Shown here: positions 1-56,822 of the stretch, in pieces
Numbering within the stretch: the first letter of the stretch is position 1
Layout of the letters: each line of letters starts with the position of its first letter
Origin: a virus
DNA: 56,822 nt
Virus genome (UHGV): UHGV-0014949
Reading direction: 5' to 3' (one strand)
Made by a program: the position numbers and the translations under genes
The notes under the pieces: model-generated
The model's database searches: none
What the model was told of the DNA's origin: nothing
What the model saw: only the letters and a program-made list of their open reading frames with translations

Positions 1-274
1 CACCTAAGCCGCATAATTCTGATTTATCGTGCAACCAGCCCCAAACACAAGCATAGGGCGATAGCTTTTTAATATTTCCTTTGGTAAAGCAATATTGCTT
101 GATGTGGTGCGGCTTTAAATCCTCATCTCTATTGGCACTAATTGCGAAAAACTCAGTACGTGGCGTAAGCATTTCTAGGATCTGGATAACCTTGTGGATG
201 CCACCAAGGGAGTGGCAGATAGTTCGATATGGATTTTCATTAATTCTTAGACTGTGTTGGTGGTACTGGTTCAT
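1..274 (-). CDS. partial hypothetical protein (start codon at 272-274, runs off the window start)
   Basis: Minus-strand open frame from ATG (revcomp of cat at 272-274), no stop to position 1. Begins MNQYHQHSLRINENPYRTICHSLGGIHKV. Lies downstream of the minus-strand terminator at 293-316. Absent from the ORF track because truncated. Confidence 0.3.
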   Translation of the reverse strand, partial: MNQYHQHSLRINENPYRTICHSLGGIHKVIQILEMLTPRTEFFAISANRDEDLKPHHIKQYCFTKGNIKKLSPYACVWGWLHDKSELCGLG

Positions 275-292
275 GCTTAAAACTCTTGAACA

Positions 293-316
293 TAAAAACC
301 CAGCACAATGGCTGGG
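293..316 (-). terminator. rho-independent terminator (end of leftward early operon)
   Basis: CCCAGC-acaatg-GCTGGG stem. T-run on the minus strand. Confidence 0.6.
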
Positions 317-335
317 CTATTGATAATAGGGTGGG

Positions 336-821
336 TTATTCGTCAATATCTTTAGCGTTGGCTTGGGATGCTTTGAGTGTTATTTGCTTTAATTCTTTAG
401 CCAAATCATTAGAGTTGATTTTAGGGTTGTGCTTAGAGAGGGCATCATCAATAACCGATTTAAGGCTGTCATTGTCTGTGAGTACCAGTCGCGCTTGTAC
501 CAAGGATAATGCAGCGCGTAAGGCTTCAATATCTTTAACAAGGTCTAGCTGTACCTGCATGTCTTTTGGTTTTTCAAAATAGTAATAATATCCGATAGCA
601 TTTTGCTCCATAGCAAAGCTAAAGCCAGACACAAGCTCAATATCCATGCCTTGTCTTTTGACTTGATTTACAAAACGTCTGGCATATTCAGGCGCAAAAT
701 CATCCATATCGTTAAAGTTATCACGGCTCATAATTGATTCTTCTGGTTGCCCTGATAGCGTGGCCTTATGGATCTGCATGGCATAGTGGATATTTTCAAC
801 ATTTCTACAGTGTTTACACAT
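336..821 (-). CDS. hypothetical protein (161 aa), last gene of the leftward early operon
   Basis: ORF track. Followed on the minus strand by a rho-independent terminator at 293-316. Confidence 0.5.
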   Translation of the reverse strand: MCKHCRNVENIHYAMQIHKATLSGQPEESIMSRDNFNDMDDFAPEYARRFVNQVKRQGMDIELVSGFSFAMEQNAIGYYYYFEKPKDMQVQLDLVKDIEALRAALSLVQARLVLTDNDSLKSVIDDALSKHNPKINSNDLAKELKQITLKASQANAKDIDE

Positions 822-1056
822 TTTTATTAAATCTCTTGGTGGCTAACATGCCACTTTTGTATATATCCCAAGCTTTTTGAATACTGGGATCTGAATAAAC
901 ATATTTTTTGTCGATCCAAGAAGCTGAAAAATCAGCTTGATGGATCTGGTTGATAATTAAGTACGTGTACTGGAAATCACTGATTGATTCGCGGACCACT
1001 GGATTGGTTGACGTGCTGACGGGTACTTGCCACGCCTTCAATTCGATTAAAAACAT
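814..1056 (-). CDS. hypothetical protein (80 aa), overlaps upstream gene by 80 nt
   Basis: ORF track only. Overlap with 977-1267 makes it uncertain. Confidence 0.25.
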   Translation of the reverse strand: MFLIELKAWQVPVSTSTNPVVRESISDFQYTYLIINQIHQADFSASWIDKKYVYSDPSIQKAWDIYKSGMLATKRFNKNV

Positions 1057-1267
1057 CTTCCGGTAAACTCTCCCTGGCTTGTTTGTAGAAAGTGCGGAAA
1101 TAGTTTTGATCCGAACGGTTCACCTTCGATGTGATTTGCTGCTCTACACGTTCAAGCTGGGCGTTAATGGCTGCATCCAGTAATGGATTATTAGAACGGC
1201 GCTTAATCAGATCCTTTTTAGCCTTGGTTAGATCCGTCATGGTCCGTGGCTTTAGATCATCTTTCAT
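977..1267 (-). CDS. hypothetical basic protein (96 aa)
   Basis: ORF track. Stop overlaps the start of 1264-1461 (coupled). Confidence 0.45.
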   Translation of the reverse strand: MKDDLKPRTMTDLTKAKKDLIKRRSNNPLLDAAINAQLERVEQQITSKVNRSDQNYFRTFYKQARESLPEDVFNRIEGVASTRQHVNQSSGPRINQ

Positions 1268-1461
1268 TGTAGAACCTCAAATTTTTCTTTACGGGCCAAA
1301 GTCTGGTTTTTGTGGACCTTGGCGGTTACTGATTTAACCAATAGGTTGTGGCGTGTAACTTTTTGCTGTGCGTCATAGCTACTGGTTGCTTCAACACGGC
1401 CCTTGATTGTGCCGTTTGAATGTACTTTGGCTTCATAAATGAAAATATAAGATTGCTGCAT
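1264..1461 (-). CDS. hypothetical protein (65 aa)
   Basis: ORF track. Packed between the exonuclease gene and downstream genes. Confidence 0.4.
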   Translation of the reverse strand: MQQSYIFIYEAKVHSNGTIKGRVEATSSYDAQQKVTRHNLLVKSVTAKVHKNQTLARKEKFEVLQ

Positions 1462-1465
1462 GTGA

Positions 1466-2161
1466 TTACCCTTTACGATTAATGAGTGCTTTACGCAAAT
1501 TTTTGTCTAAGTCGTCCTGATTCAGTAGCCAGCGAACATAATCAGGGGGCAGATTTACCAGCGCAGTCCCCTTGTACTTTCCAAACGAGATGAAAGTCGG
1601 AATAATCGCCTTCTCAGATGCTTGATAGAGTTCTTCCAGGCTTTTAATTTTTAGCGAATGAATGATGTGTTTCAGGATTGAGCCAGTAAGCAAAATATCT
1701 GCTTTAGCGTTATGGGCATTTTTTAAATACTCACGTGTTTTGTTCTGGTCGCCAGATAGCATGTACGACAGGGTGCTAATCGTATGATTTGGTGCATCCG
1801 GGAATACCATACGTGCCAGAGCAAGTGTGCAAATTGGCTTGTACTGTTCTATATCAATACCGCAGTGCTTTAGTGTTTCTAAGTCATAATCAACCTTATG
1901 GCCGATGACATAGACTGTATCGCTAGGCATCTTGAAAGTTTTATACGAAGGTTTGCCAATCAGATCCGCTTCAATGATGTGATGTACTGACATAGCGCCG
2001 TAGTCAATCGGCTGGTCCACACTGAACAACTCATCAAACAAAGCGGATTTGTCCAGGGCGAACCCTCCCTGCTCAAAAGAGCAAGGAAAGTAAGCGATTT
2101 GAATTGGCAGACCGTTAAGGCTGTTTGTTTCCGTGTCTAAAATAATGGCTTGAGTGTTCAT
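1466..2161 (-). CDS. DnaQ-like DEDDh 3'-5' exonuclease with C-terminal KYKGxxLxxxPxxYxxWL (DUF3820-like) tail
   Basis: Exo I ILDTETNS, Exo II GHKVDYDL and Exo III HNAKADI motifs read in the translation. Confidence 0.7.
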   Translation of the reverse strand: MNTQAIILDTETNSLNGLPIQIAYFPCSFEQGGFALDKSALFDELFSVDQPIDYGAMSVHHIIEADLIGKPSYKTFKMPSDTVYVIGHKVDYDLETLKHCGIDIEQYKPICTLALARMVFPDAPNHTISTLSYMLSGDQNKTREYLKNAHNAKADILLTGSILKHIIHSLKIKSLEELYQASEKAIIPTFISFGKYKGTALVNLPPDYVRWLLNQDDLDKNLRKALINRKG

Positions 2162-3099
2162 TATGCAGCGTCCGTTTCTTTCCAGCGTTTGTTATCTGGG
2201 TCGTAGATGATGTTTAGTTGTGACGCGCAATGCTTCATACCACGCCACATATTTTGATATTGAGGATGCTCAACCTGTAGGGCGAGTTCTTCCATAAGGT
2301 TGTTAAAGTCGCTGGCATACTTCGCGTCATTGCAAATCGTTTGCCAGTGAATCCATGCTTGTTCTCGTTCTGCATGTAGTTTTTGCTCAGGGGTGAGCGT
2401 GTTTAAATGTTCTTTGATATGGGTAATCAAGTCGCCTAGATAGGTCGGCTGATTGGTTATGTCTGGAACTTCGATTGTTCCAAGGTTCGCGCAATCTTTG
2501 GTGTGTAGCGCTTCATCCTTGCCAAATTTAAGAACCTTTCGGTTTTTACCGTTTTTGCCCTTCTCAATGCAGAAGTAAGCCATACAGTCAGATAGGCGAT
2601 AAACTTCCTGACGGTTTTTACCGCCTAGATCTGGGCGTTTAATAACTTCATCGCCGTCCTTGTCCTCAACAGCATGGGCCAGAAACACGACATTCTTGCC
2701 GTAGCCAATCATGCGATTCACAAAACCGCCGAAAAGGTTGTTAGCGATACCAAAAGCATTCTGTTTCAGGCCACCGTCAGACTTCACGTTGTACTGGTTA
2801 CTTGCAACATGGTTTTTAATTACATCGAGCAATCGACCAACCGTATCAATAATGATGGTTTCATACGGAACCAGATCAGCTTCTTCCAGTGAACTTACTT
2901 GATGCCAGTATTCAGCCAATTGCACATCTGAACGGCGCAAAGATCCGGCGCGATATACACCAATATCAGCGTCAATAAGAAGGGCATTGGGGCAAGTCAT
3001 TGCCAGGGATGTTTTACCAATTGAAGGATCGCCGTAGACATACAGCTTGATCGCATTGATCTGGATAGATTCAGTTGGTTTAATTACAGATAGAGCCAT
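2161..3099 (-). CDS. Sak4-like / AAA_24 RecA-family ATPase (phage recombination protein)
   Basis: Walker A GDPSIGKTS near the N-terminus, LLIDAD Walker B-like. 312 aa. Adjacent to the exonuclease, as in phage recombination modules. Confidence 0.65.
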   Translation of the reverse strand: MALSVIKPTESIQINAIKLYVYGDPSIGKTSLAMTCPNALLIDADIGVYRAGSLRRSDVQLAEYWHQVSSLEEADLVPYETIIIDTVGRLLDVIKNHVASNQYNVKSDGGLKQNAFGIANNLFGGFVNRMIGYGKNVVFLAHAVEDKDGDEVIKRPDLGGKNRQEVYRLSDCMAYFCIEKGKNGKNRKVLKFGKDEALHTKDCANLGTIEVPDITNQPTYLGDLITHIKEHLNTLTPEQKLHAEREQAWIHWQTICNDAKYASDFNNLMEELALQVEHPQYQNMWRGMKHCASQLNIIYDPDNKRWKETDAA

Positions 3100-3549
3100 G
3101 ATGTTTCCCCTTCTTATTGTTTATCGAATTTAGAGCCAGAACGATCAGCAGCATGAGCTACCGCATGAACATATTGTTCATGGTGTTCTTGTTCATAATC
3201 GTGGACGCGAAGAAGGCCAAGCATGGCAATGGTCGAGAGGACCATAGAAACGAGATATGCAATCACATTGCGGAAAGTGATATACTTCATGAGTTTTGTA
3301 TCCTATGTGTGTGGATCAAACAGAACGTGAAGGCTTGCCGGCCAACCGTTCAAACTAAGTCAGTGTTGCTATGTGCGGCACTGGCTTTTTTATTACCTCC
3401 CAATAATATATAAATTCATTTATAAAATGCAACAGTTTTCTTATATTTATTTATAATTATATTGGTATTTAGAATTTATGCTTATATGGTTTATATGGAA
3501 AACATAAACAAAAATAAAAATATTTTTAAAATAACTTTCATTAAGCCAA

Positions 3550-3575
3550 TAAAAAGCCCGACTTTAAAAGCCGGG
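3550..3575 (-). terminator. rho-independent terminator downstream of cI
   Basis: GCCCGGC/GTCGGGC stem (one mismatch) followed by TTTTT on the minus strand. Confidence 0.5.
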
Positions 3576-3604
3576 CCTGATATTTGGGGTGTATTTATTT
3601 ATTT

Positions 3605-4330
3605 TTATGGTTTAAGCATATTTACAGCAGCGACCACCACACCCAGCACTTCATAATTTTCTTTTAGTGTTGGGTAAGCTGGGTTGCTTGCTTTTAATTC
3701 ATAAGACTCTACGCCGTCCTCTGAAACATCTGTCACGCAATATTCACGGACATGAAAATCGCTATCTTTATTTTTATTTCCAACAAACACTAGGTCGGTA
3801 GGTGAAGGCTCGACCATTGGATCTACAACAAAGATTGTACCTGGTGCGTATTTCTCTAAAGAGTTGTCCTCTAGTTCAAAAGAAAATGCGGTTCTGGATA
3901 GTTCTTTGCAAATAGGGGTCGTTTCGGAGGAATTGGGCATTATAAAGCTCTGATCTCTTAGATTATGTCTAATCTTGTTTAGGACTTCCGCATTTAGCTT
4001 AGGTACATAAGACACAGTGACTTTACTCAACAATGGATTACGTGCCAGCATTTCGCGCTGTGAGATTTTTTCAGCTAACCGTGGGGAGAAAGCAGAAACA
4101 GGAACTTCTAAGGCTTTAGAAAAAATCAAAGCTGATTCTTCTTTCAATTCTACAGCGCCCTTCAAATAGCTAGACACGTTTGGCTGTGTCCAATCACCAA
4201 GATCAGCAATCGTTCTCTGAGTGAAAGTTAGACCCTTTTGCTTGTCCGCGCTTTTTTTCAGTTCGTAAAGTTCTCTTAGTTTCTCTGCTTCGCTCTGCTT
4301 TACGGCTTCGCGCATGGATCTATCAATCAT
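3605..4330 (-). CDS. cI: CI-like prophage repressor (HTH_XRE N-terminus, S24 LexA-like peptidase C-terminus)
   Basis: HTH LTFTQRTIADLGDWTQPNVSSYLKG. C-terminal GTIFVVDPMVEPSPTDLVFVG ... LKASNPAYPTLKENYEVLGVVVAAV parallels the lambda CI cleavage/dimerisation domain. Divergent from the rightward early operon. Confidence 0.85.
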   Translation of the reverse strand: MIDRSMREAVKQSEAEKLRELYELKKSADKQKGLTFTQRTIADLGDWTQPNVSSYLKGAVELKEESALIFSKALEVPVSAFSPRLAEKISQREMLARNPLLSKVTVSYVPKLNAEVLNKIRHNLRDQSFIMPNSSETTPICKELSRTAFSFELEDNSLEKYAPGTIFVVDPMVEPSPTDLVFVGNKNKDSDFHVREYCVTDVSEDGVESYELKASNPAYPTLKENYEVLGVVVAAVNMLKP

Positions 4331-4439
4331 TAATGGTCACTCCTATTATCGCACCCCTATTTTATAGATACGACTTATGTATTCACAAATATAAATATTC
4401 TTATTGATAAAGTATAAATATGGTAATATTCTAAGCTGG

Positions 4440-4457
4440 TGGCATAACCTTATGCCA
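4440..4457. promoter_or_regulatory. perfect palindrome TGGCATAA-cc-TTATGCCA in cI/early divergent region (candidate operator)
   Basis: 8-2-8 perfect inverted repeat between the divergent cI and the rightward early gene. Confidence 0.45.
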
Positions 4458-4475
4458 CATTTTTGTTTATGAAGT

Positions 4476-4793
4476 GTGAACCTTTTATTCATGATTACCA
4501 TCCCAGCAAAAAAGCAAACGTGTCGTGAAAGCCTAGAAACGGATTTAGAGAAGTTTTTAAAGGCCGGCGGCAAGATTGAGGAAATTCCGTCTGAGGAAAA
4601 GCGCAAAAGTAAGGAAAAGCTGATCAAAACACACCTTTTCTTTTCTGTGCATCACCCTTTCCACTCAAAAAACACTGGTATATCTACAGCACGCTTAAAA
4701 GCAATTCAGCGAACGGTTAGCTGTGCCAGTGATGAGGAAATAGAAACGCTTTGGATCTATTTCCGTTCGCGTGAGTGGTCATTCAATGATTGA
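4476..4793 (+). CDS. first gene of rightward early operon, in the Cro position (no recognisable Cro fold)
   Basis: ORF track (GTG at 4476; ATG alternative at 4491). Divergent from cI across a 145-bp operator region. Confidence 0.4.
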   Translation: MNLLFMITIPAKKQTCRESLETDLEKFLKAGGKIEEIPSEEKRKSKEKLIKTHLFFSVHHPFHSKNTGISTARLKAIQRTVSCASDEEIETLWIYFRSREWSFND

Positions 4794-5235
4794 GATGAAG
4801 CATATAGCAATGCTGATTGCTGAAAGGGCCGCAAAGCGTAGTAACTGCAAAAAGCGTCAGGTGGGTTTTGTTGTATTTAGAGATAAAACCATTTTGGCCG
4901 TAGGTGTAAACCAACATGCAGACGATAAGCCTTGCCAATGTGTTGCTGGTATTCATGATCCGCACGTTATTCATGCTGAAACTGTAATTTGTGATGAATG
5001 GTTCCCAGATTCACAGGCAGTTGTCACTTATGCGCCTTGTATGAGCTGTGCAAATGAACTTGTACCGTCAGGAATTGACGAAATCTCGATTCAGCACGTA
5101 AAGCACCAGGGCGGCATTCATCTTTTAAATCATCACCGCATTGTCACTCACAACGAATGGCTAACGCCGTTGCAGCGTATTCAAGCTGCATGGTTGTTGA
5201 AGTGGACATATAGACAATATGAGGAATATCTCTAA
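4786..5235 (+). CDS. CMP/dCMP (cytidine) deaminase-family zinc enzyme
   Basis: Zinc ligand and catalytic motifs VIHAETVIC (H-A-E) and YAPCMSCANEL (PCxxC). N-terminal KRQVGFVVF ... AVGVNQ matches the dCMP deaminase/ComEB pattern. Confidence 0.7.
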   Translation: MIEMKHIAMLIAERAAKRSNCKKRQVGFVVFRDKTILAVGVNQHADDKPCQCVAGIHDPHVIHAETVICDEWFPDSQAVVTYAPCMSCANELVPSGIDEISIQHVKHQGGIHLLNHHRIVTHNEWLTPLQRIQAAWLLKWTYRQYEEYL

Positions 5236-5925
5236 ATGGCTATTAAGCAAAAACCCAAAAACCGTAAAAAGGCATATAAGCCTAAAAATGTCGGCTTTGT
5301 TCAGAACTCAGCAGAATTTTCGGCATTACGTGGCTTTGATGGTATGGCAAAACACATTGCCAACTTGCCACAGCCTAAAAAATATCATTTGGATATGAAA
5401 TGGGATCTGAAAGACGCAGAAAACACACTCAACCTGTATTGCGCTTTCAATGGTATTGACGAAAACGCTAAAGGTCAGATGCCGTTACACGTATTACAAG
5501 GTGCTTATAAAGGGGATCTGATCATTGCATTACGTGAAAACCTGATTCCAGAATTGCAAAACTTCAAGATTGAAATCACCTGTAAAGCAAGACTGATGGA
5601 TGACCATAGTGTTGTTGTCCCGGTGAAGCCATACCGAGAAAGCTTTGATAACAATCCAATCCCTTACTCGATTTTTATGTCTGGTCTGGAATACGGCAAG
5701 TTCTACCATAAACGCCAGGGCGGTATTAAAACACTATGGAAAGGGCTTACAAAAGAATGGAAGCTTCATTTGGACGAACAATACAGCGATGAGTATGAAA
5801 TCTTTGATTCAAAAGCCACATTGAGCTGTGAAACATATTTCAGGTCCCAGATCTGCGAAGGCATTTTTAATCGATTAAAGGCGGAACGTGCCAAGAAACT
5901 AGCAGAACTAGGGTTAGCGGCATGA
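5236..5925 (+). CDS. hypothetical protein (229 aa)
   Basis: ORF track. Start immediately after the deaminase stop. Confidence 0.5.
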   Translation: MAIKQKPKNRKKAYKPKNVGFVQNSAEFSALRGFDGMAKHIANLPQPKKYHLDMKWDLKDAENTLNLYCAFNGIDENAKGQMPLHVLQGAYKGDLIIALRENLIPELQNFKIEITCKARLMDDHSVVVPVKPYRESFDNNPIPYSIFMSGLEYGKFYHKRQGGIKTLWKGLTKEWKLHLDEQYSDEYEIFDSKATLSCETYFRSQICEGIFNRLKAERAKKLAELGLAA

Positions 5926-6503
5926 TCAGTCGCATGAAGTTTTTTGATCTGGTTCAAGCATATAGATTGGCTACAGGTATAGACGTAAGCCGTTATGCTG
6001 CAAATACGTCATATCTGGCATTACTACAGAACGAAAAGACGGCGCTGGTCAAGCGTATGGAAAAGGCATTTTGTAAGAACGTGGATAATCAGGACTTGAG
6101 AGCGTTTTTAATTAAAAAGCCTGATGTTGATGTAGTTAGAAAGCGAGATCCAAACAAGCCTAAACGTGTTTTTTCGCAAGTGGATTATCTAGGACAGGAT
6201 ATTTTGCTCGAAGTCTTAGACCCGGATCTAAATTTACCAAACAAAGGGGCCACAACCAGACGCGCTTTTAATGAAGGCAAGTTATACATGGTTATGGACT
6301 GCCCTAATCATGGGATTGCTATGCACCGAACATCTGTAGGAACACCGAAGGATGGAGGGGAACGAAAGCATCACCATTATCAAAAGTATTGCTTGCTTTG
6401 CAAAATTGGCAGACAGGCACACCAAGAACGTGCAGATGACGTGCGTACTTTCTTAAAAAATTATTTAGCGTTCCGTGAGCGCGTTAATCAGTCGGCAAGC
6501 TGA
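5922..6503 (+). CDS. hypothetical protein (193 aa) with Cys/His cluster (CPNHG ... HHHYQKYCLLCK)
   Basis: ORF track. ATGA overlap with the upstream gene. Confidence 0.5.
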   Translation: MISRMKFFDLVQAYRLATGIDVSRYAANTSYLALLQNEKTALVKRMEKAFCKNVDNQDLRAFLIKKPDVDVVRKRDPNKPKRVFSQVDYLGQDILLEVLDPDLNLPNKGATTRRAFNEGKLYMVMDCPNHGIAMHRTSVGTPKDGGERKHHHYQKYCLLCKIGRQAHQERADDVRTFLKNYLAFRERVNQSAS

Positions 6504-6534
6504 TCCACCACACACACCACACAGGAATATCAAA

Positions 6535-49344: not shown

Positions 49345-49375
49345 TAAAAAAGGCCAGCTTAATGCTGGCCTTTTC
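49345..49375. terminator. bidirectional terminator between convergent genes
   Basis: AAAAAA-GGCCAGC-ttaat-GCTGGCC-TTTT. Confidence 0.7.
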
Positions 49376-49385
49376 GATTCGTGCG

Positions 49386-49769
49386 TTAAACGCTATGTCC
49401 TTGTTTCTTAAGTTCGCGCTTGGTGTATTCATCCAAGGCTTCAATTAATAGCGCCGTTTTATTCGTTTTACGTCCTAAACCACGTGATTTTTTCGTACCA
49501 ACCAAGTAGTCCAGGCGCAATACTAATTCCATAGGGATGTTGTAAGACCCCTTCTCAGTCACAACCATCAATTCATCCTCAGACATGCTGGTCCCAGCAC
49601 GCCAAGGTTTTACAGCTTCAACCGGATTCGTTTGTTCAACTTGAATCGTTTGCAAAGGTGCAGCGTTAATAACTTCTTCCGGGCTTTTTTCAGCTTGGGC
49701 AGGTTTACGTGCTTCGGTAGCTTGCGCCCGGCGTGGGTTCGCTGGAATATCAGTCATTATTTTCACCAT
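49386..49769 (-). CDS. partition adaptor protein (ParG/ParB-like small DNA-binding partner of ParA)
   Basis: 127 aa, basic N-terminus. Translationally coupled (ATGACTGA) to the upstream parA. Call by position. Confidence 0.45.
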   Translation of the reverse strand: MVKIMTDIPANPRRAQATEARKPAQAEKSPEEVINAAPLQTIQVEQTNPVEAVKPWRAGTSMSEDELMVVTEKGSYNIPMELVLRLDYLVGTKKSRGLGRKTNKTALLIEALDEYTKRELKKQGHSV

Positions 49770-50412
49770 AAATAAAGTTAAACAAAGTTAAGAACTCATT
49801 TTGAGCAATTTCAATATATTTCGTTTCATTGCGCTTAATTGGCTTTAGATCCAATAGACCGATACCCTCATCGAAAGCTCTTGTGTACCAGACACGATCA
49901 CCAATAACAGTTGGACAAGGTTGAACTAACGGATCGTTAATAATCTCAGTAATTGCCCGATCAAGTTCTGGTGATGATGTGTGGTGCGGTGCTTTAGTAA
50001 CAACACCGTACACTTTAGGCAGGTTATCTGGACGCATTTGCTCGATTGTTTCTGCTACTTTTCGCAGACCTTCAATGTTTGAAGTGGAACCCACCAATAA
50101 AGGGATGAGAATTACATCGGCAATACTAATAGCTTGACGGTATTCAGTGTTATCGAAACCACCAGCATCAATTACCACTTCGTCATAATCATCTGCAATT
50201 TTGGCAATCTGGTCGCGAACATCACCAGATAAAAAGTAAAACTTACCATCTATCTCAGTGCGGTTTTTACTCCATTCAGCCGATGCAGCCTTATTTACAG
50301 AATCCAGATCCACACCAACAACACCCTTATCTTTCGCTAAAGCAGCAAGAATTGAAGTCGCTAAAGATGTTTTTCCGACACCGCCTTTCGTGTTCGCAAT
50401 TAAAGTAATCAT
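49750..50412 (-). CDS. parA: ParA/Soj-family partition ATPase (small type Ib)
   Basis: Deviant Walker A TKGGVGKTSLAT near the N-terminus. 220 aa. Confidence 0.8.
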   Translation of the reverse strand: MITLIANTKGGVGKTSLATSILAALAKDKGVVGVDLDSVNKAASAEWSKNRTEIDGKFYFLSGDVRDQIAKIADDYDEVVIDAGGFDNTEYRQAISIADVILIPLLVGSTSNIEGLRKVAETIEQMRPDNLPKVYGVVTKAPHHTSSPELDRAITEIINDPLVQPCPTVIGDRVWYTRAFDEGIGLLDLKPIKRNETKYIEIAQNEFLTLFNFIYGENND

Positions 50413-50620
50413 TTATATATTTCCATGTGTGTGTGAATATTGCCGTATGTGCATTATACCTACCAGATATACAGCTATCAATACAGCCAGATATAAATAT
50501 AACTAACCTTAAATATATGAAACCTTATATATAGCCATTTTTATAGTTATATATCTATCAATATGTATGGTTATATATATGTATTATATAATACATATAT
50601 ATTATTTTAGCTACTGTAAG
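50413..50620. repeat. AT-rich reiterated TATATAT(A/C)-type repeats plus CCAGATATA x2 upstream of parA (candidate centromere/par promoter)
   Basis: Repeated cttatatatag, gttatatatct, ggttatatatatg, attatataatac, catatatatta units, and CCAGATATA at about 50464 and 50489. Confidence 0.35.
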
Positions 50621-51202
50621 TCATTGACTTAGTTTAATTACTTTCTCTTTTAATAGATTTGGGTCTGACGCAAAGTATTCCTGAGTTGTTGTAATACTAG
50701 AATGCCCCATGAGTTGCTGAATTGAATAAATATCAACATTATGTCTAATTAATCGAGTAGCAAATGAGCGCCGTCCACTATGAGAAGTCCCATTTATACC
50801 GGCTTTCTTGTATAAATTACCGATCATTCTTTGCATGGTATTGGCTGTAAAAGGTTGTAATTTTTGTGATAAAAATAACGGTGCTTCCGGCCCTGAATCC
50901 TCCCTTGAAAGGATATATTCAAGCATGATATTTCTGGCCGTTGTGTCCAGTAGGAAAACTTCACGGTATTTATTACCCTTGGTGTATGCAGCTAAAAGCC
51001 GGATCGTATCCCTGAGTATGTGATTTCTAAAATCGTACACATCACCCATTTTAAGTGAAGCCATTTCCTTGGCACGCAAACCCATAAAATGAGAAGCCAG
51101 TAACACAGCTTGGTTTCTTACTGAGTTTTTACCCTTTAGGCTTTTAAGTGTGAGTTGCAGATCACTTTCAGAAATATATGCAGCTTTGCCTGATTTTTTC
51201 AT
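50621..51202 (-). CDS. minimal tyrosine recombinase (catalytic domain only, 193 aa)
   Basis: R in GLRAKE, HSGRRSFAT (H-x-x-R) and LMGHSSITTTQEY (H ... Y) give the R-H-R-Y set. No N-terminal core-binding domain. FimB/FimE-size. Confidence 0.75.
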   Translation of the reverse strand: MKKSGKAAYISESDLQLTLKSLKGKNSVRNQAVLLASHFMGLRAKEMASLKMGDVYDFRNHILRDTIRLLAAYTKGNKYREVFLLDTTARNIMLEYILSREDSGPEAPLFLSQKLQPFTANTMQRMIGNLYKKAGINGTSHSGRRSFATRLIRHNVDIYSIQQLMGHSSITTTQEYFASDPNLLKEKVIKLSQ

Positions 51203-51257
51203 AAATCACCCCATCGTATTTTTCATGAAACAGTAGTTAGACCCTGCAAAAACATTT

Positions 51258-51506
51258 TCATGCACGTACAGCGTGTTGCTGACCTATTGATGTGCTGGCG
51301 TTATTTAGGATTAGCTGCATTTGTCGCCCCGAAAATGGGGGAATCAAACCAAATCCTTTTAGGCCGTTAACCTCCCTTTGTATGAATACTTTTGCAGCTT
51401 CTAGGTCTAGTCCAGGGTTCATTATTATTAAGGTTTCTATGAGTTCTTTCTCTTGCTTGTTGATCATCCGTAAATTCCTAATTAATAATCTAAAATTCAT
51501 GCTCAT
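51258..51506 (-). CDS. hypothetical small protein (82 aa), possible regulator
   Basis: ORF track. Sits between the recombinase and the twin terminators. Confidence 0.4.
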   Translation of the reverse strand: MSMNFRLLIRNLRMINKQEKELIETLIIMNPGLDLEAAKVFIQREVNGLKGFGLIPPFSGRQMQLILNNASTSIGQQHAVRA

Positions 51507-51527
51507 AATAATCCTAAATACAATAAT

Positions 51528-51558
51528 GCCCTAAAATGTCTATTTTAGGGCATTTTTA
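51528..51558. terminator. hairpin terminator 1 of a tandem pair downstream of MTase operon
   Basis: GCCCTAAAA-tgtcta-TTTTAGGGC perfect 9-bp stem with flanking T/A runs. Confidence 0.55.
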
Positions 51559-51571
51559 TAGGCAAAATAAG

Positions 51572-51597
51572 TACCGCCGAAGCGGTAGCTATTTTTT
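51572..51597. terminator. hairpin terminator 2 of tandem pair
   Basis: TACCGC-cgaa-GCGGTA plus TATTTTTT. Confidence 0.55.
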
Positions 51598-51599
51598 AA

Positions 51600-52139
51600 T
51601 TAATTTCTTGCCAGGTGATATGTGTTGGCTAGTGCTTTCTTACGTTCACGCACCAGATGTACAGCCATATCCAATGAAATCTCATCAACAAACTTTGTTA
51701 CTAGTAATTTTTCCGGAAGTCTACGCCAGGCTTCTTCTGATACGCCATAGGCGACATTGCCAGAAATAGATTTATAGCGCATGTGCATAGCACCGGATAA
51801 TTCATCTATTCTTGCATCCGCCTGATACGTGTCGATATAGCACAGGGAATATTGAACAGCACTGATTACCGGATTCATATCGCCAAATGAGTAGCGCGAT
51901 GTTTGTCTTTTTGGGTATTCATAACGTTCACGTATTTCTTTAACTTCTGCCGTTTGCACTGGCAAAGTGGCAAAGTGTTCGCCTAAGACTTCTGCGGTGA
52001 GATTAATCACTTCATTCGCTTGGCATAAATCATGGTTAAGTGAGCTGATATGTTCTATATGCTGCTCAAGTAGCTTTTCTTGCGACTGGATCTGGTTACG
52101 CATAGCGCGTTTTTGATTGCGTCCAAAACGTCTCGCCAT
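51600..52139 (-). CDS. hypothetical protein (179 aa), third gene of MTase operon
   Basis: ORF track. ATGA-coupled to 52142-52687. Confidence 0.45.
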   Translation of the reverse strand: MARRFGRNQKRAMRNQIQSQEKLLEQHIEHISSLNHDLCQANEVINLTAEVLGEHFATLPVQTAEVKEIRERYEYPKRQTSRYSFGDMNPVISAVQYSLCYIDTYQADARIDELSGAMHMRYKSISGNVAYGVSEEAWRRLPEKLLVTKFVDEISLDMAVHLVRERKKALANTYHLARN

Positions 52140-52141
52140 TG

Positions 52142-52687
52142 TTATAGATCCTCAATATTTACAGAGATTCGCTTTTGGTCCTTTCGGGCATCACAAGCCG
52201 TATTGAGTTCAGCATCTTCGCTCATTTGAGCTTTGATCTCATTCAGGCAGTGTTCATCCATACTTAAAACTTCACCACTTTTCAAAGTTAATTCAAAACT
52301 AACTTTCGCAAATTTAAAGATTTCTTGATCAAAGGAATCAAAATTGCTGATCATTCTGGCTTTTTGGATCTGCATTTCGGCAATCAAATTTTCTATATTT
52401 GATAAGGTTGCACCTTCTGGTACTTTTCGATTTTGGTAGGCTTCATCGGGTAGGGTAACGTAATCATATTTTTTGTTATCCATAACAGCCAGTAAATGAT
52501 TATCTTGGCATGTGTAATAGTGTTCGGATAACTCAGATATTAACTTGCCTTCCAAGTCGTATGATTGCTGATACACATTGCGAAATAGCTTTGGCCCAAT
52601 ATGGTCACAGCCAGCTTCGCAAACCCATTCTTGATGATCTTCTAATTCTGGTAGCTGGCGGATTGGTTTAATTTGATTGATGTTCAT
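52142..52687 (-). CDS. hypothetical protein (181 aa) with Cys cluster (CEAGCDH)
   Basis: ORF track. Second gene of the MTase operon. Confidence 0.45.
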   Translation of the reverse strand: MNINQIKPIRQLPELEDHQEWVCEAGCDHIGPKLFRNVYQQSYDLEGKLISELSEHYYTCQDNHLLAVMDNKKYDYVTLPDEAYQNRKVPEGATLSNIENLIAEMQIQKARMISNFDSFDQEIFKFAKVSFELTLKSGEVLSMDEHCLNEIKAQMSEDAELNTACDARKDQKRISVNIEDL

Positions 52688-52761
52688 AGTGTGTGACTTC
52701 CCCCTTTAGGGATTAAAATGTATTCGCTGTTTACTTCTGTGTGTGCAATACCAGCTCGGAG

Positions 52762-54210
52762 TTATGCTGCACCACTATACTGAAGTTCATGTTTGAAATT
52801 CGCCTCAACCAAAGCTTTAGAAAGATCAGGCGGTACGGAGTTCCCAACCATACGAGTTTGTTCAGTTTTGGTTAGTGTGATTCGTTGATCTTTTTCATCA
52901 ATACCGTGTGTAAAAATGTATGTTTCTGGAAAGCCTTGCGCTTTAAAAAGCTCAACCGGTTGAAGCATTCGGAAACCAATGTCTACAATCTCGTAATCTT
53001 GCTGCCCGATTGTCACAAGCCCAAAACGGTCACGTGTTGGAATGGTTCTTAATGGCTCATCGACTGAATTACCATCTTTTTCATTGCCATAAAATGCTGT
53101 AAGAAATGCACGAACTTCTGCAAACTGATTTACGGTTGTGAGTGTATGCATGGGATCACTAACATCCTGTCCAGTACAGCCGTTTTTCATTTTGGATAAA
53201 TGGCTAACTACAAGCGAATTATGATCTTTGGCTGTAATCGTATGAACTGGTTCTTTTATAGAACTACCAATAACACCTGTGTAGTTTTTTGCTAGAAATG
53301 CAGAAATCAGTGCGTGATGTCCACCTTTTGTTTGAGCACAGATAGTTCTTAAAGGCTCATCAATTGGCATTGAGCGCTTATTTGATGCGTTGGCGCATTC
53401 TGTTAACACTGGTGCGATACCATTCACAATAAATGGCTTTTGATTATTGAAAACAAATTTCTTTAATCCACCTGCAATACGTTCAAGTGTGGCTGTGGCC
53501 AATGGACGTTTACGTGTAAAGATACTCGGGCAATCAAGAGACCAATCAATACATTCCGCTGCTGTGCGCCAAGGTTTTAAATTACCTTTTTGCACTTGGA
53601 CGGAATCAGGATGTGCATGTGTAGGTTTAGGCCACCTGATCTCTAACCCATCTCGACGTGCAATTAGAAAGAAACGCTTACGGATCGTTGGTGATCCATA
53701 ATCACATGCACGCAATTCACGATAATCAACCACATAACCTTGACGTTTAAGCGCATTCACAAACGAATTGAAAGTTCGTCCTTTCTGTTTTGGACAAGGC
53801 TTACCATTTGCAGCTAAATCACCCCATGTTTTAAATTCTTCTACATTCTCCAGCATGATTACTCGAGGGCGAACTTTTGCTGCCCACCGCAAAGCAACCC
53901 AAGCCAAGCCACGAATTTTCTTTTCTACTGGTTTACTGCCTTTTGCTTTAGAAAAATGCTTGCAATCAGGTGATAACCAAACAAGCCCTACTGGTTGATT
54001 TCCAGTGACTTCAATTGGATCTATATCCCACACACTTTCACAATAATGCTTAGTGTCTGGATGGTTAATACGATGCATTGCTAGAGCTTTGGCATCATGA
54101 TTTATTGCTACATCAACTGGACGACCAAATGCTTGCTCAAGACCTGTACTTGTACCGCCGCCGCCAGCAAAGTTGTCTATGATTAATTCGTGGGGTAGTA
54201 AGTTCATCAT
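52762..54210 (-). CDS. DNA (cytosine-5)-methyltransferase
   Basis: Motif I DNFAGGGG, motif IV SPDCKHFSKA (PC), motif VI ENV, motif IX/X QGFPETYIF and GNSVPP all present in order. 482 aa. Confidence 0.85.
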   Translation of the reverse strand: MMNLLPHELIIDNFAGGGGTSTGLEQAFGRPVDVAINHDAKALAMHRINHPDTKHYCESVWDIDPIEVTGNQPVGLVWLSPDCKHFSKAKGSKPVEKKIRGLAWVALRWAAKVRPRVIMLENVEEFKTWGDLAANGKPCPKQKGRTFNSFVNALKRQGYVVDYRELRACDYGSPTIRKRFFLIARRDGLEIRWPKPTHAHPDSVQVQKGNLKPWRTAAECIDWSLDCPSIFTRKRPLATATLERIAGGLKKFVFNNQKPFIVNGIAPVLTECANASNKRSMPIDEPLRTICAQTKGGHHALISAFLAKNYTGVIGSSIKEPVHTITAKDHNSLVVSHLSKMKNGCTGQDVSDPMHTLTTVNQFAEVRAFLTAFYGNEKDGNSVDEPLRTIPTRDRFGLVTIGQQDYEIVDIGFRMLQPVELFKAQGFPETYIFTHGIDEKDQRITLTKTEQTRMVGNSVPPDLSKALVEANFKHELQYSGAA

Positions 54211-54262
54211 ATAGATAGATCCTTTTATGTGTGTGGAGTTTTAGAAGTAATTGCCGTCACTT

Positions 54263-54292
54263 CGCCATATAGACGACATAAATATAATTTGT
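54263..54292. promoter_or_regulatory. inverted pair of iteron half-sites (GACGACA-N12-TGTCGTC)
   Basis: tatagacgacataaatataatttgtcgtcaatt. Uses the iteron core AGACGACA in inverted orientation, about 50 nt upstream of the MTase start codon. Confidence 0.4.
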
Positions 54293-54322
54293 CGTCAATT
54301 ATAAATCAAGTTACTAGATAAG

Positions 54323-54352
54323 AAAAAAGCCAGATAAACAAATTATCTGGCC
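54323..54352 (-). terminator. terminator upstream of MTase promoter (insulates from ori region)
   Basis: GCCAGATA-aacaaat-TATCTGGC. T-run on the minus strand. Confidence 0.5.
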
Positions 54353-54791
54353 TTTCCCACTTTCGCTTTAGGATTCACTTAATCATTTATGACCAAATTA
54401 ACCATCATTTCCCAATGACAGAGCTAATATAAATCATTTATCTAAATAATAAAAGCTGTTTATAAAATAAGTAATATACTCTAAGTGTTGTGTTTATTGA
54501 CTTCTGACACCAATAGACGACATTTGCCTGACAAATAGGCTATTTAAAATATAAGTCATTAATAAGATTATATAAATATTTTTTGCCTAAGTTGAATAAA
54601 ACTTATTTTAAAAATAAGTTCCATTAATTAAATTACCGGGAATATTGGCTAAGTAATCATCTAAAAACAGTAAAAAATCTAAAATTTAACCAAAATAACC
54701 CATTATTTACTTATTAAAGAAGAACCTTATTTACTTATTCTATTAGTGACACGATTTTTCGGCCTGAAAGCCTTATGCTGTCTATATTTCA

Positions 54792-54945
54792 AAAAAGTAA
54801 TAAACGACAAATCCCTGACGCTTAGACGACAAATCCCTGACGCTTAGACGACAAATCCCTGACGCTAATAGACGACAAATCCCTGACGCTTAGACGACAA
54901 ATCCCTGACGCAAAATAAATAGACGACAAATCCCTGACACTAATA
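54792..54945. repeat. iteron array: six full and one partial direct 22-bp repeats AGACGACAAATCCCTGACGCTT (oriV)
   Basis: Direct repeats read in sequence with 0-7 nt spacers, 75 nt upstream of the Rep_3 gene. AT-rich region upstream. Confidence 0.8.
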
Positions 54946-55021
54946 GACGACAAACTTTTATCTTGACGTTTAATGTCGCGTATTATACCATTTTTGCATC
55001 TGAAAACTAAGAATTAAGAAA

Positions 55022-56281
55022 ATGACTGATCTTGTTATTTCTGAAACGGATATTGCGGTTAAGCAAGCAAACAGGCTGATTGAGTCCATTTATAAGATGG
55101 AGCTGAACGAACATAAATTACTTTTGTTGGCGACCAAGAAAGTTAATGAGATGGAATTGCGTAATCATCCATTTAACGAAAGGACAAAAATAACGATCAG
55201 CAGTTCTGAATTTGCCGACCAATATGCTATTACCAGACAAACGGCATTCGATATTATCGTGGATGCTAAAAAATCTATCTATGAGCGTGAGTTTGATTAT
55301 CTTCATGTGGAAGAAAATGGAACCGTGACCCCAATGAAAAGTCGTTGGTTTCAAGCCAGAGGGATGGATGCTGGTAAGGGTGAAATTTCTTTTATGTTCG
55401 CCAGTGCGGTTATTCCTTTAATTTATCTTGTGAAAAGTGAATACACTTTGTTGGATCTGCATGAGATTGGGCAACTAAATAGTAAATATGCAGTGCGTTT
55501 ATATAAGTATTTAATGCGCTGGGTAAATGCACCGTATAAAAACAAGATCTCGATAGAGCAGCTTAGGGTCATATTTGGGCTGGGTGAGGATGAATACCCT
55601 AGACTGTTTGACTTTAAGCGCCGTGTTCTTGATGTGGCCGTTAAAATGGTAAAGGCAAATACTGGTTTTAAGGATCTGACTGTCAAAAGCTACAAAACTG
55701 GCGTGAAGGTTACAGATTTTTCCTTTCATTACACCAGCTACAGCAACAAGCTAATCAAAAATGCTAGAAAGCAGGTGATTGATGGGGATTCTGCACACGG
55801 TCAGAACGGTGATGATTATGTGATTTATCAAATGACCATTGATCAAATTGAAACCTTCTCTAAAACTTTGGCGCTCAAGGCATCCAAGTCTGAGCCAGGT
55901 TATTCTGAGCTTGGTTCCTTGGTTGATGCTGGTCAAGATTGGTCGGTATTGGCTAAACGAATTTCAGAAGATTTCAGAAAGTGCGTATTTGAGCCGTATT
56001 TAGAGTATTTGAAGTTGGCAGGGTTCAAGCCTACCAAGCTGAATAAAACGCCGCTACCGGGGCAAACAGAAGAAAATACAGCTATTGATTCTGGTAATGA
56101 GGGCGAGGAGCCGGAAAAACCAAAAGACAATCCATTTAAATTACCTGATTCCCTATATGCCAGGTATGTTTCCAAGGGGGGTAAAATGACCAAGGATCAG
56201 ATCCTAGATATAGCAATGGCTGAGGATACGAAGCCGGTTAAGGTGATGCTTGATGATGGAATAAATGTACTGGCAATATAG
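55022..56281 (+). CDS. repA: Rep_3-family plasmid replication initiator
   Basis: SRWFQARGMD ... ISFMFASAVIPLIYL ... LDLHEIGQLNSKYAVRLYKYLMRW ... GEDEYPRLFDFKRRVLDVAVKMVKANTGFKDLTVKSYKTGVKVTDFSFHY parallels Acinetobacter-type Rep_3 initiators. Iterons immediately upstream. Confidence 0.8.
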   Translation: MTDLVISETDIAVKQANRLIESIYKMELNEHKLLLLATKKVNEMELRNHPFNERTKITISSSEFADQYAITRQTAFDIIVDAKKSIYEREFDYLHVEENGTVTPMKSRWFQARGMDAGKGEISFMFASAVIPLIYLVKSEYTLLDLHEIGQLNSKYAVRLYKYLMRWVNAPYKNKISIEQLRVIFGLGEDEYPRLFDFKRRVLDVAVKMVKANTGFKDLTVKSYKTGVKVTDFSFHYTSYSNKLIKNARKQVIDGDSAHGQNGDDYVIYQMTIDQIETFSKTLALKASKSEPGYSELGSLVDAGQDWSVLAKRISEDFRKCVFEPYLEYLKLAGFKPTKLNKTPLPGQTEENTAIDSGNEGEEPEKPKDNPFKLPDSLYARYVSKGGKMTKDQILDIAMAEDTKPVKVMLDDGINVLAI

Positions 56282-56292
56282 TAGTCAGTAAA

Positions 56293-56325
56293 GAAAAACC
56301 CGGCTTAATTGGCCGGGTTTTTTTA
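56293..56325. terminator. bidirectional terminator between repA and convergent 124 aa gene
   Basis: AAAAA-CCCGGC-ttaattg-GCCGGG-TTTTTTT. Confidence 0.75.
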
Positions 56326-56336
56326 TTCGAGGGATT

Positions 56337-56711
56337 TTACAGAAAAATGATTTTGATAATAGCAGCGCCAATAACCAGAAAGATCAGCATTAGTGCCTTA
56401 TCAATTTCCTTGGTAGATTCTATTTCCTGGGCATATTCCATATTTTTTTTAATTTCATATTGGCGCAAGGCTTCTGTAAGTAACAAGCTTTGCTCAAGTC
56501 GCATTTGCATCCATGCAATATCCGATTCCACTTCACGCCGGCGGTGCATTCTTTTCAGTTCGGCTGCTAACCTTAGTTGCTCATCATAGAGCTTCATGGT
56601 CTGATTAATTCGGTACTCAGTGTGAGTAAGGTATTCACCATCTACAGGTTCAACATCACTTTTAATTAGCTCATTCACAATCGCAACCCTGATCACCTTG
56701 TTTCTTGTCAC
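56337..56711 (-). CDS. hypothetical C-terminally membrane-anchored protein (124 aa)
   Basis: GTG start with AAGAGG ribosome-binding site. C-terminal LMLIFLVIGAAIIKIIFL. Confidence 0.45.
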   Translation of the reverse strand: MTRNKVIRVAIVNELIKSDVEPVDGEYLTHTEYRINQTMKLYDEQLRLAAELKRMHRRREVESDIAWMQMRLEQSLLLTEALRQYEIKKNMEYAQEIESTKEIDKALMLIFLVIGAAIIKIIFL

Positions 56712-56822
56712 CTCTTAAAAGTGTAATCCTATCCATCGTTTGAAAATAGATATTTTCAGGAACAAATACGCCGTGGTTAATTGCGTGTTCTAGGCCGCCT
56801 AGGAACTCATTAACCTGATATG

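Follow-up and report, generated by a model that had tools for sequence, protein, structure and literature searches.

Phage-plasmids carry genes both as viruses and as plasmids, a way of life familiar from P1, in which an iteron-binding initiator, ParA-type partition and Cre/lox multimer resolution are joined to repressor-held lysogeny, headful packaging and a virion-borne antirestriction protein (DarB). About 7% of RefSeq plasmids have been scored as phage-plasmids (PMC7969092). For Acinetobacter, a genus of clinical concern, the only characterised phage-plasmid group in the literature that we found is the AB group, elements of about 110 kb that carry recA/recF and two ParB genes and have been described as kin of the SSU5 supercommunity (Pfeifer et al. 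2021, PMC7969092). Here we analyze the UHGV virus genome UHGV-0014949, a stretch of 56,822 bp with 42.7% G+C (referred to below, at its full length, as the window), and conclude that it is very probably the whole circular genome of a temperate podovirus of Acinetobacter that is kept as a phage-plasmid. The element shares host genus and lifestyle class with the AB group but, as a 57-kb podovirus-type genome, belongs to a different lineage.

Two further sets of described elements frame the comparison. The nearest cultured phages are the Bcep22-like podoviruses (Lessievirus: Bcep22, BcepIL02, DC1, BcepMigl and JC1) together with a wider group (PBC5, PEp14, Parlo and LASTA/SJM3); JC1 integrates into rimO and has been reported to be circularly permuted and headful packaged (PMC9144972). 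Much closer in gene content is the A. baumannii plasmid pTG31986, the type plasmid of the Rep_3 group R3-T16, which was described with no remark on phage nature (Lam et al. 2022, PMC9927589). As features of a phage-plasmid we considered a gene set for packaging, head, tail or ejection and lysis; a plasmid-type initiator and/or partition system; and a closed replicon that has neither host flanks nor an integrase.

Closure of the circle

The exact Rep protein of the window is encoded on three further public contigs of 56.8 to 57.0 kb, which match the window with no mismatches over every stretch compared and whose break points are all different. The first (ENA ERZ28615552 scaffold_495, 56,877 bp) starts at window position 26902, and its first 55 bp equal its last 55 bp exactly, with no other overlap length fitting; since 56,877 - 55 = 56,822, this is a circular path as given by a k=55 assembly. 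The second (ENA ERZ27287089 k141_576301, from MEGAHIT) measures 56,963 bp, that is, the window plus 141 at an assembler k of 141, an agreement of length arithmetic alone: its ends lie inside the giant gene described below, and the 141-bp overlap itself was not read. The third (Logan ERR7738152_5870, 56,774 bp) ends inside the iteron array at window position 54882, a place where an assembler would be expected to break the circle. Across the ends of the window, locus L001 runs from position 45022 to 56822 and on through 1-9459, crossing the junction with 0 mismatches over 21,260 bp. Because identical contigs break elsewhere and one spans the 56822/1 junction, the window is one permutation of a closed circle, with strong support at the assembly level. 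It has no exact terminal repeat, and at this level the replicon is closed, with no host flanks and no large integrase in the ORFs scanned.

The original prediction, a reading of the letters made by a model that ran no database searches, had taken the window for one circular phage-plasmid and had rated its own evidence for circularity as weak. On the public contigs the circle closes, both by the contigs that exceed the window by 55 and 141 bp and by the mismatch-free junction; chromosomal sequence, which it had named as a possible contradiction, is absent from the assembled circle. It had also pointed to a minus-strand open reading frame (ORF) that runs off the start of the window and might continue at its end for 48 codons to a TGA near 56700. 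A gene does continue there from the ATG at 274-272, but with 49 whole codons and one split codon in the window's end and with its TGA at 56673-56671:

1-274, minus strand: 5' part of the wrap-around gene, first 91 codons plus one base, from the ATG at 274-272; called as one gene of 141 amino acids (aa) on locus L001
56671-56822, minus strand: 3' part of the wrap-around gene, TGA at 56673-56671, with an 8-nt overlap with the start of the gene at 56337-56678

Homologues that span the junction adjoin rep, directly after it and on the opposite strand, in four relatives (L021 84%, L022 66%, L013 51%, L012 38%). Judged by this conservation beside rep, the ORF is a real 141-aa gene, the product of which has no Pfam or PHROG match.

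Plasmid-type replication, partition and recombination genes

The circle is laid out in three blocks, a leftward one (336-4330, minus strand) ending with a 241-aa repressor, a rightward one (4491-47923) and a mixed one (48187-56822) that holds a tRNA and the plasmid-type genes. The features of the last block that bear on plasmid life are as follows:

55022-56281, plus strand: Rep_3 (RepE/RepM-type) initiator, 419 aa, with a long C-terminal extension; Pfam Rep3_N 1.5e-24 (87.5 bits) and Rep3_C 6.7e-13 (49.1 bits)
54801-54965, plus strand: iteron array from a repeat scan, with a 22-bp unit present six times in full and once by half, running into a rep promoter-like site at 54963-54991
54211-54797: AT-rich part of the presumed origin, 27% G+C, with a diverged iteron at 54514 and an inverted iteron half-site pair at 54270-54301
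49750-50412, minus strand: ParA-type partition ATPase, short form, 220 aa; Pfam CbiA, AAA_31 and MipZ; phrog_164 'ParA-like partition protein' 4.6e-34
49386-49769, minus strand: small ParA partner, 123-127 aa, presumed centromere-binding protein, overlapping the end of parA; phrog_4064 2.9e-30
50413-50620: AT-rich intergenic region between the recombinase gene and parA, 208 bp, 24% G+C, where the parA promoter is found together with imperfect repeats and, at 50573-50602, a perfect 30-bp palindrome
50621-51202, minus strand: tyrosine recombinase, 193 aa, catalytic domain only; Pfam Phage_integrase 2.1e-27, 96.4 bits
48187-48260, plus strand: tRNA-Arg(TCT); ARAGORN, and Rfam tRNA at 74 bits

Both Rep domains score above the Pfam cut-offs, giving the protein two winged-helix domains (WH1 and WH2), and Rep matches the PDB structures of RepE and RepA at 6e-10 to 2e-14, with RepE (1rep/2z9o) aligned over aa 13-237. 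Upstream of rep, TAGACGACAAATCCCTGACGCT is repeated with a 22-bp period, six times in full and once by half. The six full copies of the iteron, TAGACGACAAATCCCTGAC, occupy 54801-54938 at a spacing of 22-29 bp, the half copy lies at 54944, and the array ends 57 bp before the rep start; 100 shuffles yielded 0 matches. No DnaA box with at most one mismatch occurs in 54211-54797, and such boxes are not enriched across the window.

Two observations on this replicon may be added. The Pfam domains of Rep stop at residue 237 and the 304-position model of Acinetobacter RepM stops at residue 335, beyond which lies a conserved C-terminal extension that is retained even where the N-terminal part has been swapped. 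Inverted iteron half-sites (TAGACGACA ... TGTCGTC) are found at 54270-54301, some 60-90 bp beyond the start codon of a methyltransferase gene (54210) and 500 bp from the main array; this pair is a candidate for a second site at which Rep may bind to exert control.

ParA is of the Walker type, as in short (type Ib-like) partition systems: its P-loop NTPase domain begins at residue 3-4, and an N-terminal DNA-binding domain is absent. The partner belongs to no family of known function in Pfam, PHROG and NCBIfam searches, and its gene keeps its position in the relatives. A promoter-like sequence for parA (TTGATA-17-TATAAT, 11/12 positions) lies at 50481-50453 on the minus strand, within an intergenic region where ATACATAT occurs three times (three of its four copies in the window) and TATATCTGG twice; the region is a candidate centromere/operator and/or recombinase site. 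Its perfect palindrome of 15+15 bp (50573-50602) lies 19 bp past the recombinase stop. Palindromes 20-30 bp past the recombinase stop occur in three relatives, namely the window, pTG31986 (L003 41776-41800) and L023 (~8000-8030), and ATGTAT/ATACAT motifs recur in all three of these intergenic regions. The palindrome could be the recombinase site or the centromere.

The recombinase aligns solely to the C-terminal halves (residues ~95-290) of XerA, XerC and XerD; its R, HxxR, H and Y all align to those of the XerC-like protein 4a8e, and the N-terminal core-binding domain of the Xer/Cre type is missing. An assignment as a Xer or Cre orthologue was dropped, because the alignment covers only the catalytic half. 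A protein of similar size and span is represented by the FimB/E-type invertase model NF007370, to which the recombinase has a weak match (positions 9-180/200, 34.7 bits). From its conserved position beside parA, the recombinase most likely resolves plasmid multimers.

The plasmid functions named in the original prediction are thus found: a Rep_3 initiator, recognised by Rep3_N and Rep3_C, with its 6.5 upstream iterons; ParA and a small partner that is conserved in the relatives; and a tyrosine recombinase of multimer-resolution size, here 193 aa. The "AT-rich reiterated region" that it placed beside parA is AT-rich indeed (24% against 42.7% G+C for the window) and reiterated only in a loose sense, its repeats being imperfect. 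Its statement that no large integrase is present also holds for every ORF scanned, none of which has another integrase, serine recombinase or transposase domain.

The small recombinase raises an alternative, in which the element is an integrating temperate phage, the 193-aa protein is its integrase, perhaps acting at a tRNA-Arg gene, and the window is the excised or replicating form. PHROG and Pfam do file the protein with integrases, and a tRNA-Arg(TCT) is carried 2.4 kb from its gene. However, the recombinase has neither the core-binding nor the arm-binding domain that phage integrases possess, the tRNA of the element is complete and sits elsewhere in pTG31986, flanking chromosomal DNA is present on none of about 15 related contigs and records, and the circle closes without host sequence. 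We regard integration as very improbable. The plasmid-type initiator with iterons and the ParA-like ATPase with a conserved partner are features of a phage-plasmid.

Phage genes

The phage functions are carried by the repressor at the end of the leftward block and by the long rightward block:

3605-4330, minus strand: lambda-CI-like repressor, 241 aa, transcribed away from the early operon; phrog_4 'transcriptional repressor' 2.7e-13
4331-4490: divergent regulatory region between repressor and early operon, 29% G+C (base composition)
4491-12622, plus strand: early operon (SutA-RBD, dCMP deaminase, DUF559/Vsr-like, WDGH, Tad2-like-domain, crAss001_48-like and several PHROGs of unknown function)
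12675-13873, plus strand: lysis cassette (membrane proteins of 149 aa, with several hydrophobic segments, and of 85 aa, with two; CHAP/TIGR02594 endolysin)
13949-14653, plus strand: small terminase TerS; phrog_1889 1.2e-29
14577-16097, plus strand: large terminase TerL; Pfam Terminase_6N and Terminase_6C; likely true start near 14667 (ENA contigs, 476-aa call)
16522-18813, plus strand: P22-type portal, 763 aa; Pfam P22_portal 2.9e-128
19896-21044, plus strand: major capsid protein, N4-gp56 family; Pfam Phage_capsid_3 1.1e-51; NCBIfam capsid_maj_N4 143.8 bits against a cut-off of 60
22206-22868, plus strand: head-to-tail adaptor, SU10 type; Pfam SU10_adaptor 8.7e-21
24084-25763, plus strand: internal virion protein, 559 aa, Bcep22 gp67 homologue; phrog_511 2.9e-183; 30% identity to Bcep22 41967-43691
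25714-31437, plus strand: putative tail fibre/spike, ~1,900 aa, the most divergent region of the genome; intact ORF, no Pfam match
33314-36304, plus strand: ejection proteins, one of 262 aa, weakly T7-gp14-like (Pfam T7_gp14 8.4e-4, below cut-off), and one of 730 aa with a lytic transglycosylase domain (SLT 6.1e-15)
36413-47923, plus strand: giant polyvalent virion protein, 3,836 aa, with an ADP-ribosyltransferase domain (Pfam ART-PolyVal 4.4e-17, aa 2771-2885)

TerS, TerL, portal, major capsid protein, adaptor, fibre, internal and ejection proteins, holin-like proteins and endolysin are therefore all present, and a DUF4376 fibre-associated protein was found among the virion genes by domain search. 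Pfam, PHROG and NCBIfam matches bear out the tailed-phage set of the original prediction (repressor, early, lysis, packaging, head, fibre and ejection genes), and every element on its list was found at or near the position that it gave. The best solved relative of the repressor is the full-length lambda repressor 3bdn (3.4e-6), aligned through an 'EVEGNSM'-type segment. The endolysin matches Pfam CHAP and, above cut-off, NCBIfam TIGR02594 (4.4e-35), and the lysis cassette stands just before TerS. The nuclease domain of TerL matches PDB 4dkw ('Large terminase protein', 2.5e-54), the headful nuclease of phage P22.

The giant ORF makes up 20% of the genome, is intact and stands in the position of Bcep22 gp75 ('DarB-like'), to which its product has weak similarity. 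The C-terminal 943 aa of the protein are 67% identical to a PLxRFG-domain protein of pTG31986, the remainder being poorly conserved. A homologue in JC1 has been found in virions (PMC9144972). The N-terminus of the fibre is 46% identical to a 3,049-aa protein of pTG31986.

Colinear relatives in Acinetobacter isolates and metagenomes

Megablast of window 1-25000 against the phage collection and of both halves against the plasmid collection gave no nucleotide match except the tRNA. Relatives were found by protein-level searches, those of Rep in IMG/VR via a Rep alignment, where a single-sequence Rep scan had found nothing. The portal finds its best matches, at 64.7% identity, in five plasmids of completely sequenced A. 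baumannii genomes, all of them circular, 55-56 kb long and of the pTG31986 type (NZ_CP039342, CP039344, CP039932, CP072306 and CP140422).

pTG31986 itself is a circle of comparable size (55-56 kb), and its gene order follows that of the window all the way round. It has homologues for 37 of the 57 window proteins tested, with identities of 80% for TerL, 71% for the major capsid protein, 65% for the portal, 64% for the recombinase (a 195-aa protein), 57% for ParA, 53% for the repressor (an XRE-family regulator), 45% for the partner (the gene in the same position) and 39% for Rep. Both have a 22-bp iteron array upstream of rep and a tRNA-Arg(TCT). They differ in iteron sequence, in the length of Rep (376 aa in pTG31986), in the place of the tRNA and in host species, and share no megablast match; the fibre and giant proteins measure 3,049 and 3,227 aa in pTG31986 against ~1,900 and 3,836 aa in the window. 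The plasmid has a YoeB/antitoxin pair and a Y-family polymerase, both of which the window lacks. Among the genes of the window are a C5 methyltransferase and a dCMP deaminase. As read from gene order, the joint phage and plasmid architecture is an inherited unit rather than a chimera, because those 37 proteins are colinear with their homologues in a circular plasmid.

Closer relatives came from the one-genome-per-species collection, in which two contigs of A. lwoffii isolates (NZ_JBMPZJ010000009.1, 58,533 bp, and NZ_JAMXXC010000017.1, 57,089 bp) are 87-96% identical in nucleotide sequence to the window over the 22 kb compared (early and virion genes), the fibre region excepted. Their portals, like that of IMGVR_UViG_3300014961_000001, are 94-95% identical to the window's. 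As extrapolated from coordinates and lengths, each contig would amount to about one full circle with no room for chromosomal flanks. The 87-96% identity of these contigs makes A. lwoffii or a close relative the most likely host, and the 42.7% G+C of the window agrees with this. Between window positions 24.1 and ~26.3 kb, a span that takes in the gene for the internal virion protein and ~600 nt at the start of the fibre gene, identity to the two contigs (L009 and L010) falls to 71-75%, and the rest of the fibre gene has no nucleotide match or lies beyond the loci compared. This divergence is as would be expected for host-range diversification.

Further colinear relatives of 51-58 kb are found in IMG/VR and among metagenome contigs, and none of the A. 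baumannii, A. lwoffii, IMG/VR or metagenome relatives lies on a contig longer than one unit length (all <=58.5 kb). The evidence for extrachromosomal carriage thus comes from relatives, as circular plasmid records in complete A. baumannii genomes and as unit-length contigs in A. lwoffii isolates, and we infer a like maintenance for the window element itself.

These relatives also bear on a second alternative, in which the phage has no plasmid prophage state at all: the circle would be the assembly image of a permuted, terminally redundant headful genome, Rep_3 and its iterons would be the phage origin, and ParA would serve some other role. The match of the TerL nuclease domain to 4dkw and the metagenomic source of the window are compatible with it, and the early operon shows no recognisable helicase, primase or further replication initiator, so that Rep could be the lytic initiator too. 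The related phage JC1, moreover, has been reported to be terminally redundant and circularly permuted (PMC9144972). Against it stand the CI-like repressor and a plasmid-maintenance set, conserved across the lineage, of ParA ATPase, partner and adjoining recombinase. Five complete genomes of A. baumannii isolates, moreover, include a colinear relative as a circular plasmid record, and the assemblies of two A. lwoffii isolates contain one as a unit-length contig, which speaks for stable carriage in pure cultures. We consider it improbable that the element lacks a plasmid state. Circle closure, the presence of both plasmid and phage modules and the colinear circular plasmids uphold the phage-plasmid reading with which the original prediction began.

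Selection on virion genes

A third alternative accepts maintenance as a plasmid and holds that the element is defective, unable to make infectious particles. It would fit a lineage that has no cultured phage in the phage collection, in which no spanin is recognised and whose A. baumannii members have been handled as ordinary Rep_3 plasmids (type R3-T16; PMC9927589). What speaks against it is above all the state of the virion genes. All the large ones are intact, and we computed the ratio of nonsynonymous to synonymous substitution rates (dN/dS) for 15 genes against each of the two A. lwoffii contigs: for virion and packaging genes it is 0.02-0.15, at dS from 0.08 to >0.6, and for the endolysin 0.25-0.35. 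Values of 0.02-0.15 mean strong purifying selection, and since they hold even where dS reaches 0.6 or more, protein function has remained under selection. The receptor-binding region diverges fastest, as expected of a phage still tracking its hosts, and the same backbone recurs in several metagenomes and in IMG/VR. These ratios, the intact long ORFs and the fast-diverging receptor-binding region argue against a decaying phage remnant, and a defective element seems to us an improbable reading; the window element itself may produce infectious virions.

Proposed life cycle and points that weigh against it

By analogy with what is established for CI-type repressors, P22-type terminases, Rep_3 replicons and partition by short ParA proteins, we propose the following model for the temperate phage-plasmid. 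During lysogeny, the lambda-CI-like repressor would silence the divergently transcribed early operon, while the Rep_3 initiator would bind the 22-bp iterons beside the AT-rich stretch and start theta replication, for which the host would supply the enzymes. Copies would be segregated by the short ParA ATPase, acting with its small partner through the AT-rich repeat region upstream of parA, and the catalytic-domain-only tyrosine recombinase beside parA would most likely resolve plasmid multimers. Upon induction, presumably of the SOS type, the early, lysis and late genes would be switched on, and the 4dkw-related terminase and the P22-type portal would package DNA by the headful into an N4-gp56-type capsid; virion DNA would therefore be circularly permuted. 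The co-packaged internal and ejection proteins would be the gp14-like protein, the SLT protein and the 3,836-aa polyvalent ADP-ribosyltransferase-domain protein. Since no helicase, primase, polymerase or second initiator was recognised in domain scans of the early operon ORFs, Rep may also start lytic replication, which is speculative.

Several points weigh against this interpretation. A headful-packaged, circularly permuted lytic phage assembles as a circle too, so that closure alone is no proof of a plasmid state, and the four contigs of identical sequence may come from related samples or reassemblies, and so may be independent assemblies without being independent biological observations. 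Induction and virions are predictions for the element and, as far as we found, for its whole lineage. No isolated phage in a collection of 50,697 phage records exceeds 37% portal identity. A hydrophobicity scan of the window recognised no spanin, and no antirepressor was recognised. The match of Rep to NCBIfam RepM_Acin (4e-52) falls under the curated cut-off for the named equivalog, and that of ParA to NCBIfam ParA_partition (2.7e-22, positions 4-191/203) reaches 79 bits against a cut-off of 180. The partner protein and the centromere are presumptive assignments: a single-sequence AlphaFold model of the partner, with a disordered N-terminus and a strand-helix-helix C-terminus, has a predicted local distance difference test score (pLDDT) of 58.6.

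Comparison with cultured phages and other phage-plasmids

The virion module of the window is colinear with that of the Bcep22-like podoviruses, with identities of ~37% for portal and major capsid protein, 38% for the adaptor and 30% for the internal virion protein; in all, eight window proteins are colinear with Bcep22 at 20-47% identity. In both, a giant virion protein of several thousand residues closes the module, and the gene of a cI-like repressor points away from the early genes. The two part company in the genes for prophage maintenance. Bcep22 (gp06) and JC1 (gp1, a serine recombinase) have an integrase of ~550 aa, where the window instead has Rep_3, ParA and a small tyrosine recombinase, and Bcep22 has its own replication initiator, a DnaC-like loader, RecT and RecE, which were not found in the window. 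Megablast of window 1-25000, the half with portal and capsid genes, gave no match to phage records, Lessievirus included. By these identities, the relationship to Lessievirus is a distant one, above genus level.

A plasmid of Brucella pseudintermedia, pOps-OCH-23_4 (NZ_CP137607.1, L027; 59,075 bp, circular), carries a Bcep22-like virion module with an N4-gp56 capsid and a 4,953-aa PLxRFG protein; its portal is 33% identical to the window's, its partition genes are repA/repB, and it encodes a tyrosine recombinase of 378 aa. Further matches to the window portal came from plasmids of Chromobacterium and Comamonas, 57-74 kb in length. Plasmid life recurs in this podovirus supergroup, because the Brucella plasmid joins the same kind of virion module with repA/repB.

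The likeness to P1 set out at the beginning is one of functions. P1 is a 94-kb myovirus with unrelated virion genes, its RepA is not of the Rep_3 type, its Cre is a full-length two-domain recombinase, and it has a separate lytic replicon (repL), of which none was recognised in the window. The AB group, pLM21S1 and RHEph10 were rejected as relatives, being elements of 110-118 kb and of a different type.

Apparent exchange of the Rep-iteron cassette

IMGVR_UViG_3300014961_000001 (L021, 58,108 bp) is 82-92% identical in nucleotide sequence to the window on both sides of the origin, with a repressor at 98.8% and the AAA_24 ATPase at 99.4%. Between these flanks, window 52760-55827, which spans the methyltransferase gene, the AT-rich region, the iterons and the first ~270 rep codons (the WH1-WH2 part), has no nucleotide counterpart in L021 1670-3906. 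The Rep of L021 is 47.5% identical overall, and its last ~150 codons are 71% similar in nucleotide sequence; its iteron, GGACAATTCTTTGACAGGGTAA, is present in five copies and differs from the window's. All iteron arrays of the relatives examined have a 22-bp period, and their sequences differ in step with a Rep divergence of 39-62%. This fits a pattern of conserved phage genes and variable plasmid genes that has been reported for phage-plasmids (PMC7969092). The apparent swapping of the Rep-iteron cassette, seen at few loci, suggests incompatibility switching.

As an observation beside these, one relative (L012 2095-4107 and 1642-2027; ENA ERZ28616921 scaffold_121, 54,913 bp) has tandem Rep_3 genes of 406 and 238 aa and two separate iteron arrays.

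A broader reading would join four points: a podoviral phage-plasmid lineage of genus level or above, undescribed, uncultured and widespread in Acinetobacter; exchange of a cassette of Rep WH1-WH2 and iterons that switches incompatibility or immunity; a single Rep_3 origin for maintenance and lytic replication; and repeated capture of host-typical replicons in the supergroup (Rep_3 in Acinetobacter, repABC-type in Brucella). We put it forward tentatively, and as a whole it is rather doubtful.

Place among known elements

GenBank already lists members of the lineage as plasmids, and IMG/VR has viral contigs that belong to it. We found no published description of a 55-58-kb podoviral lineage in Acinetobacter in the literature and in those parts of the survey supplementary lists that were covered, and in the covered parts of the supplementary tables of phage-plasmid surveys the pTG31986-type accessions are absent. 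The known class of phage-plasmids gains in the window element a credible but unremarkable member. What it adds is a second, unrelated phage-plasmid lineage in Acinetobacter, short-tailed and so far catalogued as 'Rep_3 plasmids' (R3-T16) or as anonymous viral contigs. Seen as phages, the R3-T16 plasmids would spread by infection, with a host range set by the fibre, and not by conjugation or mobilisation, and the apparent swapping of Rep-iteron cassettes would offer a simple natural system for incompatibility-driven phage-plasmid evolution. This is useful for the annotation of Acinetobacter 'plasmids'; it does not overturn current understanding and will not surprise specialists.

Accessory genes

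The remaining annotated genes are these:

336-821, minus strand: conserved 161-aa protein of unknown function; phrog_27053 1.3e-18; homologue in pTG31986
1466-2161, minus strand: DnaQ/ExoX-like 3'-5' exonuclease, 231 aa; Pfam RNase_T; NCBIfam exodeoxyribonuclease X 3.7e-20, below cut-off
2161-3099, minus strand: AAA_24 ATPase, a phage P-loop recombination/replication accessory protein, 312 aa; Pfam AAA_24 1.8e-28
52762-54210, minus strand: accessory cytosine-5 DNA methyltransferase, 482 aa; Pfam DNA_methylase 1.5e-30; PADLOC MTase_II

The methyltransferase, which is the only system returned by PADLOC over the window, is absent from L021, the closest IMG/VR relative. An Rfam scan returned the tRNA only; the tRNA-Arg(TCT) gene follows the giant gene in the window and lies between rep and the recombinase gene in pTG31986 (L003 40767-40843). 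A possible counter-defence or host-takeover set can be made out at 11042-11920, 4491-4793, 4771-5235, 6475-7035 and 52762-54210, comprising a C-terminal Tad2-like (anti-Thoeris) domain in a 292-aa protein, a SutA RNA-polymerase-binding domain, a dCMP deaminase, a DUF559/Vsr-like protein and the orphan-looking C5 methyltransferase.

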